A DNA stretch of 64,000 nt, from the NCBI RefSeq assembly GCF_056746865.1, contig NZ_CM163382.1; one strand, 5' to 3'. The notes under the pieces are model-generated. The model ran no database searches, had not been told where the DNA came from, and saw only the letters and a list, made by a program, of their open reading frames with translations. A program made the position numbers and the translations under genes. Positions 10,170 to 10,743 of the stretch are shown piece after piece (positions within the stretch are counted from its first letter, which is position 1; the number at the start of each line of letters is the position of its first letter).

Positions 10170-10682
10170 GTGAGTGGAATACTGACGCGCTGGCGACAGT
10201 TTGGTAAACGCTACTTCTGGCCGCATCTCTTATTAGGGATGGTCGCGGCGAGTTTAGGTTTGCCTGCGCTCAGCAACGCCGCCGAACCAAACGCGCCCGC
10301 AAAAGCGACAACCCGCAACCACGAGCCTTCAGCCAAAGTTAACTTTGGTCAATTGGCCTTGCTGGAAGCGAACACGCGCCGCCCGAATTCGAACTATTCC
10401 GTTGATTACTGGCATCAACATGCCATTCGCACGGTAATCCGTCATCTTTCCTTCGCAATGGCACCGCAAACGCTGCCCGTTGCTGAAGAATCTTTGCCTC
10501 TTCAGGCGCAACATCTTGCATTACTGGATACGCTCAGCGCGCTGTTGACCCAGGAAGGCACGCCGTCTGAAAAGGGTTATCGCATTGATTATGCGCATTT
10601 TACCCCGCAAGCAAAATTCAGCACGCCCGTCTGGATAAGCCAGGCGCAAGGCATCCGTGCTGGCCCTCAACGCCTCAGCTAA
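10170..10682 (+). CDS. secM: SecA translation regulator SecM (secretion monitor)
   Basis: GTG start at 10170 gives 170 aa ([35 protein letters not shown]...); ORF track extends further upstream in same frame; C-terminal arrest peptide present. Confidence 0.9.
10617..10667 (+). promoter_or_regulatory. secM: SecM ribosome-arrest peptide coding segment ([17 protein letters not shown]) controlling secA translation
   Basis: Exact arrest motif found in translation just before secM stop; established cis-acting translational regulator of downstream secA. Confidence 0.85.
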
Positions 10683-10743
10683 CAACAATAAACCTTTACT
10701 TCATTTTATTGACTCCGCAACGCGGGGCGTTTGAGATTTTATT

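Follow-up and report, generated by a model that had tools for sequence, protein, structure and literature searches.

The secM–secA locus of an Escherichia coli sequence and its predicted secretion-monitor switch

Results

Gene order and identity at the locus

The window, by which is meant the whole 64-kb stretch of DNA that was analysed, carries the genes ftsZ, lpxC, secM, secA and mutT in the order annotated in E. coli 042 and in K-12 (Table 1). The protein encoded directly upstream of secA, on the same strand, is a member of the long SecM family. It matches the Pfam profile SecM (PF06558) over profile positions 1–146 of 147 with an E-value of 4.2e-58 (195.9 bits against a cutoff of 25), and the NCBIfam SecM equivalog NF002799 over positions 1–168 of 169 (231.2 bits against a cutoff of 100). 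The family SecM_small (PF10818/NF038363), which is likewise annotated as a cis-regulator of secA translation encoded upstream of secA, shows a weak similarity to the N-terminal part of the window's SecM (E = 6.6e-4; 25.9 bits) that lies below the curated cut-offs, at 20.9 against 26.1 bits for PF10818 and 25.9 against 45 bits for NF038363. The downstream reading frame contains the SecA_DEAD, SecA P-loop, SecA_SW, PP-bind and SEC-C domains.

Over 901 bp of the locus the window has 100% identity to E. coli 042, where secM is annotated at identical coordinates in the matching sequence, and to many other complete E. coli genomes; judged by this identity, the window is E. coli DNA. The locus is present as a single copy in 5424 of 5426 complete E. 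coli genomes and the genes are always annotated as secM and secA. Three of the 5424 junction matches are on records labelled as plasmids and two of the 5426 complete genomes have no match, despite secA being essential. Both are probably issues of assembly or labelling.

Several other RNA features were seen in the window. Just past the lpxC stop (9939), at 9957–10028, nine consecutive U follow a strong hairpin, and a 91-nt fold here has an energy of −29.3 kcal/mol (z = −5.59). This is probably the intrinsic terminator of lpxC; the excessive length of its loop and interior explains why the consensus terminator scan missed it. A full-length match to the Rfam family PssrA ('Plasmid-encoded Shigella sRNA A') at 7689–7778 (+), with 105.5 bits against a gathering threshold of 69, spans the 3′ end of the chromosomal ftsA and the start of ftsZ, a location at odds with the name of the family. 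Matches at the Rfam gathering level were also found for STnc40 at 13425–13494 (+), across the secA stop (13449) and the secA–mutT spacer, for naRNA4 at 13898–13973 (+), just past mutT, and for tp2 at 25247–25360 (−). No tRNA genes were found in the whole 64-kb window.

Table 1. Genes, codons and predicted RNA elements at the secM–secA locus, in window coordinates.
Feature	Position	Strand	Remark
ftsZ	7770–8921		ATG at 7770
lpxC	9022–9939		LpxC domain match in the protein upstream of secM
secM	10170–10682	+	GTG start; 170 codons plus TAA (10680–10682)
SecM N-terminal export signal, residues 1–37	10170–10280	+	sequence identical to K-12
Arrest motif, F150 to P166	10617–10667	+	from translation; motif definition PMC4737659, PMC10951299
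Arg163 codon, CGT	10656–10658	+	essential for arrest (PMC4737659, PMC10951299)
Gly165 codon, GGC	10662–10664	+	P-site codon of the arrested ribosome (PMC10951299)
Pro166 codon, CCT	10665–10667	+	A-site codon of the arrested ribosome, Pro-tRNA (PMC10951299)
Predicted SD helix, 5′ arm	10666–10679	+	CUCAACGCCUC (10666–10676) and GC (10678–10679); MFE and centroid; starts at base 2 of the Pro166 codon
Four tail codons QRLS and TAA stop	10668–10682	+	Ser170 is AGC; Thr in K-12 is ACC
secM–secA spacer	10683–10743	+	61 nt
A/U-rich inner hairpin	10686–10711	+	10686–10692 with 10705–10711; weak, sequence poorly conserved
Local hairpin	10713–10727	+	CUCCGC-AAC-GCGGGG; predicted to form when the 5′ arm is unavailable
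Predicted SD helix, 3′ arm	10722–10735	+	GCGGGGCG (10722–10729) and UUGAG (10731–10735); contains the secA SD
secA Shine–Dalgarno (SD), GAGA	10733–10736	+	7 nt before the AUG; 8 nt from the GAG core (10733–10735)
secA	10744–13449	+	ATG at 10744–10746; 901 aa

The SecM protein and its arrest motif

A Sec signal sequence of the kind that would permit export-driven release of arrest is present at the N-terminus of the window's SecM. By eye in the translation, a basic n-region containing R8, K13 and R14 is followed by a hydrophobic core, and the boundary of the export signal we take to be residue 37.

An earlier note on this DNA, made from the sequence, had placed a complete arrest motif at the end of secM. 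Translation of 10617–10682 bears this out: the F150 codon begins at 10617, and 10743, at which the interval given in that note for the arrest peptide and intergenic region ends, is the base just before the secA ATG. The 17-residue motif comprising residues 150–166 is sufficient for stalling. Within it R163, G165 and P166 are essential, with mutations abolishing stalling, and F150, W155, I156, G161 and I162 contribute (PMC4737659). Mutation of the Pro166 or Arg163 codons, which the same note had named as evidence that would speak against it, is not seen, and CGT and CCT are both intact. The pattern F-x4-WI-x4-GIRAGP was searched for as a degenerate DNA pattern with up to two mismatches allowed, with 100 shuffles as the control. 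Even with two mismatches it gave one match in the 64-kb window, where 0.00 were expected from the shuffles, and the match is therefore not due to chance.

Residues 1–165 of SecM are identical to the 'Secretion monitor' chains in the stalled-ribosome cryo-EM structures 9vvi and 9xwo, residues 132–165 are identical to the chain in 8qoa, and the arrest motif is also identical to that of the chain in 3jbv. Structures 9VVI and 9XWO derive from a 2026 study of release by YheS, an ABCF factor that is also able to release SecM arrest (PMC13249984). In a 2.0 Å structure Gly165 occupies the P site and Pro166 the A site, and arrest is relieved by pulling (PMC10951299).

Comparison with K-12 and other E. 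coli

The closest known system is SecM of K-12 (b0097) together with its secM–secA intergenic stem-loop, and the window shares with it the gene and its position, the length of 170 aa, the 61-nt spacer, the motif, the SD and the start context. Over 1101 aligned nucleotides there are 18 differences between the two. Seven of these are in secM, six being synonymous and the seventh, at 10678, giving T170S, with residues 1–169 identical; the spacer has a single difference, 10711 A>G. In the interval 10617–10743 only two bases differ, 10678 C>G and 10711 A>G, and both fall outside the arrest motif, the SD and the start codon. The comparison to a reference that had been suggested in the earlier note was run, and the arrest motif, the SD and the start context are all identical to K-12.

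The exact 130-nt sequence of the window is present in about one tenth of 5424 complete E. coli genomes. Around a third are one base away from it, such as Nissle 1917, with Ser170 and an A at 10711, and around a half are two bases away, K-12 among them. The most divergent of the E. coli alleles examined encode the same arrest motif. Ser170 is found in Nissle 1917 and also in AST85. Since the tail in relatives is nearly always QRLS, Ser170 is the family consensus, and the QRLT of K-12 is the derived form.

The predicted SD-sequestering helix

Folding of 10600–10760, which had been proposed as a check for a helix that sequesters the SD, predicts the expected helix, and the minimum free energy (MFE) and centroid structures are the same (−42.2 kcal/mol; z = −2.49 against shuffles). 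In both, the two segments of the 5′ arm pair with the two segments of the 3′ arm given in Table 1, leaving one bulged U. The helix relies on G–U pairs as well as the one-base bulge. An inverted-repeat finder run on the DNA of 10600–10760 gave nothing, the exact complement amounting to just 6 nt (AACGCC/GGCGTT). Rfam gave no match to the locus with E ≤ 1 in 9900–11000 on either strand, and none here at the gathering threshold in the scan of the whole window.

In the free mRNA the GAG of the SD is predicted to be unpaired with a probability of 0.01–0.02 in the window allele, and of 0.00–0.02 across both alleles. For the window sequence, with which one of the loci in the comparative set (L068) is identical, 0.96 of the SD pairing probability falls on the region of the arrest footprint. 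Compared with the predicted MFE structure of K-12 the SD helix of the window is two pairs longer, at the cost of the CCGC/GCGG hairpin, a shorter form of the local hairpin that is nested inside the SD helix in K-12. The isolated duplex of the two arms is more stable in the window (−19.4 kcal/mol) than in K-12 (−17.5 kcal/mol) because G10678 adds two pairs. The A/U-rich inner hairpin of the window allele also gains a closing pair, C10686–G10711, that is absent in K-12. The full local hairpin takes in the G-rich portion of the 3′ arm but not the SD.

Counting from the first base of the P-site codon (10662 as +1), the 5′ arm extends from +5 to +18. Ribosome footprints and toeprints place the covered mRNA as far as roughly +15 or +16, so that essentially the whole of the main helix arm would lie within the mRNA channel of the arrested ribosome.

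Arrested and free states

When the mRNA 3′ of the arrest site is folded by itself, the SD is found in weak A/U-rich alternatives, and the GAG is predicted to be unpaired with a probability of 0.20–0.52 as opposed to the 0.01–0.02 of the free mRNA. The cost of opening the SD is 5.0–5.5 kcal/mol in the free state against 3.0–3.6 kcal/mol in the arrested state. This is a gain of approximately 2–3 kcal/mol, which becomes smaller or is lost when the 5′ context is short. Where only the footprint was masked, the SD arm re-paired with 10617–10629, upstream of the ribosome, and the SD was not freed. This equilibrium state was judged to be unrealistic, both sterically and kinetically unlikely, because it needs pairing across the ribosome and because queued ribosomes would probably cover the pairing partner; the 3′-only folds were used instead.

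The complementarity of the 5′ arm to the SD arm is within the top 0.3% of all 19-mers in the window. The segment 10283–10306, which spans the codons for residues 39–46 of SecM, is better than the canonical arm (−22.7 kcal/mol), and 10617–10629, in the codons for F150–P153, reaches −15.5 kcal/mol. About one or two such segments are expected by chance in every 500 nt, and the complementarity of both is compatible with chance. The helix is meaningful through the position of its arm in the channel of the arrested ribosome, and not through complementarity alone. For the mRNA half of the model, the support from folding in silico is consistent but modest, and weaker than the textbook picture would suggest.

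Conservation across the Enterobacteriaceae

Searching species-representative genomes for the degenerate motif pattern gave 86 matches, made up of 85 genuine Enterobacteriaceae junctions and one chance match, in a Glaciimonas metagenome-assembled genome (MAG; JACMQE010000269.1, L076), which reads FIA* and was left out. One MAG labelled only 'Proteobacteria bacterium' (JAFACP010000149.1, L012) has a typical Enterobacter-like secM–secA junction.

The arrest motif is kept exactly, and always four codons before the stop, in all 85 junctions, and in most of these genomes the tail is QRLS. The SecM loci of other Enterobacteriaceae, among them Salmonella, Citrobacter, Klebsiella, Enterobacter, Cedecea and Buttiauxella, share F-x4-WI-x4-GIRAGP, the four codons, the GAGA SD and the downstream secA with the window, but differ in the variable positions of the motif and in the spacer sequences. 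The spacer is 55–68 nt long in 83 of the 84 loci in which both ends are readable. GAGA is invariant in all 82 aligned distinct sequences, which also show little or no variation at the AUG and along most of both arms. Of 83 sequences, 79 have a distance of 8 nt from the GAG to the AUG. A spacer of 182 nt is seen in a locus labelled Citrobacter freundii M-21 (NZ_JAALBX010000005.1, L062), where about 125 nt are inserted between the arms of the helix; the insertion contains ACTTACTGAAGTAAGT and is reminiscent of an ERIC-type intergenic repeat. The SecM motif at the same locus, FAVSHWISQVKGIRAGPKRLS, is like that of the Atlantibacter loci and unlike that of Citrobacter.

For the nine core pairs of the helix, 91.7% of cells are paired across the 82 sequences, compared with 32–55% when the 3′ partner is slid by 1–3 columns. 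The single double change among the helix pairs is in L020, where CAA>CAG is compensated by UUU>UCU. Covariation in the 82 sequences did not exceed that of the shuffle controls, as both arms are nearly invariant, one encoding P-Q-R-L and the other being the SD, and therefore only the conservation of pairing is claimed as comparative support. RNAalifold run on the same 82 sequences did not recover the SD helix and returned a weak local consensus of −3.75 kcal/mol.

When the sequences were folded individually, most of the SD pairing fell on the arrest footprint in 44 of 83 species. No pairing of the SD with the arrest footprint is predicted, in contrast to the window, for the Cedecea and Buttiauxella types, whose tail is P-L/F-R-L, or for some other genera. 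The probability of pairing between footprint and SD is 0.00–0.03 in loci with a P-L/F-R/C-L tail, comprising the Cedecea-type and related loci L008, L029, L042, L078, L015, L032, L049 and L087. In these loci the 5′ arm CUCCGUCUU is instead seen, by eye, to complement AAGACGG about 10 nt upstream of the SD, which suggests that these genera may have a shifted helix or a different read-out.

Discussion

The elements described here are those of a system studied experimentally in K-12, in which the secA SD is hidden by a stem-loop between the two genes that the stalled ribosome destabilises (PMC4737659). On the evidence of the sequence, the locus is almost certainly an intact E. coli secM–secA secretion-monitor switch. 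In the free mRNA, 10666–10679 would pair with 10722–10735 and so sequester the secA SD. A ribosome arrested with Gly165 in its P site would hold the 5′ arm in its mRNA channel, and the SD helix could therefore not form; the G-rich part of the 3′ arm would then be taken up in the local hairpin and the secA SD would become available. While secretion is working, SecA and SecYEG would pull on the SecM signal sequence and arrest would be short, whereas impaired secretion would lead to a longer arrest and more SecA being made. Upon release the ribosome would read four further codons and terminate, allowing the helix to re-form.

The position of the secM stop codon raises the possibility of plain translational coupling, with any ribosome that reads to the stop melting the helix and the arrest motif being inessential to secA expression. 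Because the stop (10680–10682) is directly 3′ of the 5′ arm a terminating ribosome would also cover the arm, and the fold obtained with a ribosome placed at the stop indeed lacks the canonical helix. Coupling alone, however, would not need the motif to be kept exactly, four codons before the stop, in 85 of 85 junctions, and we consider this explanation highly improbable. Arrest is reportedly essential for both basal and regulated SecA expression, according to the genetic work published by Murakami, Nakatogawa and Ito in PNAS in 2004. Coupling of this kind is also hard to square with the loss of stalling on mutation of R163, G165 or P166 (PMC4737659).

It is less likely again that secA is under transcriptional control, with the spacer hairpin CUCCGCAACGCGGGG and the U-rich stretch that follows (10713–10743) acting as an intrinsic terminator or attenuator. 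The 6-bp G+C-rich hairpin at 10713–10727 is followed by GUUUGAGAUUUUAUU, but the U tract is broken by the SD and starts 3 nt past the hairpin stem, and the terminator scan found nothing on the + strand in 9900–10900. Prediction for the free mRNA puts the G-rich strand in the SD helix instead. Furthermore, secA is 17 nt downstream without a convincing promoter of its own, a promoter-like match at 10731–10759 being at the level of chance (1 against 0.9 expected).

That the switch is inactive or altered here through T170S (10678) and 10711 A>G has a negligible likelihood, for while both substitutions are in the predicted structure, with G10678 adding two pairs to the SD helix and G10711 closing the inner hairpin, neither is in the arrest motif, the SD or the start codon, Ser170 is the family consensus, about a tenth of 5424 complete E. 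coli genomes have the exact 130-nt sequence, and the predicted sequestration of the SD is equal in both alleles (probability unpaired 0.00–0.02).

The reading of the locus as the intact secM–secA switch agrees with the earlier note, which had proposed that the translational arrest exposing the secA ribosome-binding site is intact. This is supported in so far as all the elements of the switch are unmutated, as gauged by their identity to K-12. The note had also described the system as a well-described cis-regulatory one and not novel, and this too holds (PMC4737659, PMC10951299). The switch found here is already known, and the window carries an ordinary E. coli allele with the family-consensus Ser170.

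The logic of the switch recurs in other systems. According to the published accounts (PMC10987492, PMC7897499, PMC10951233), VemP–secDF2, MifM–yidC2 and the RAPP peptides ApcA, ApdA and ApdP all rely on a nascent chain that is exported or inserted and that halts the ribosome making it. The localization machinery relieves the arrest, and an mRNA structure hiding the downstream SD is opened by the stalled ribosome. These peptides differ from SecM in having unrelated sequences, other arrest motifs and other regulated genes.

Within the Enterobacteriaceae, pairing between the SD and the arrest footprint is predicted for only about half of the species, and for this reason it might be supposed that the SD-masking helix is not a universal read-out of SecM arrest. 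More narrowly, the two allele bases might shift the basal set-point of SecA synthesis between E. coli lineages. These suggestions are speculative and we regard them as unlikely. Those who use SecM–secA as a model system should be a little cautious: for the mRNA half of the mechanism the basis is experimental work in K-12, the helix is beyond confirmation by covariation because its two arms are otherwise constrained, and in simple thermodynamic models the arrested state differs only modestly from the free one. For the strain from which the window derives, the value of the locus is in its correct annotation: the canonical switch appears to be complete, and SecA expression should therefore be regulated as it is in K-12.
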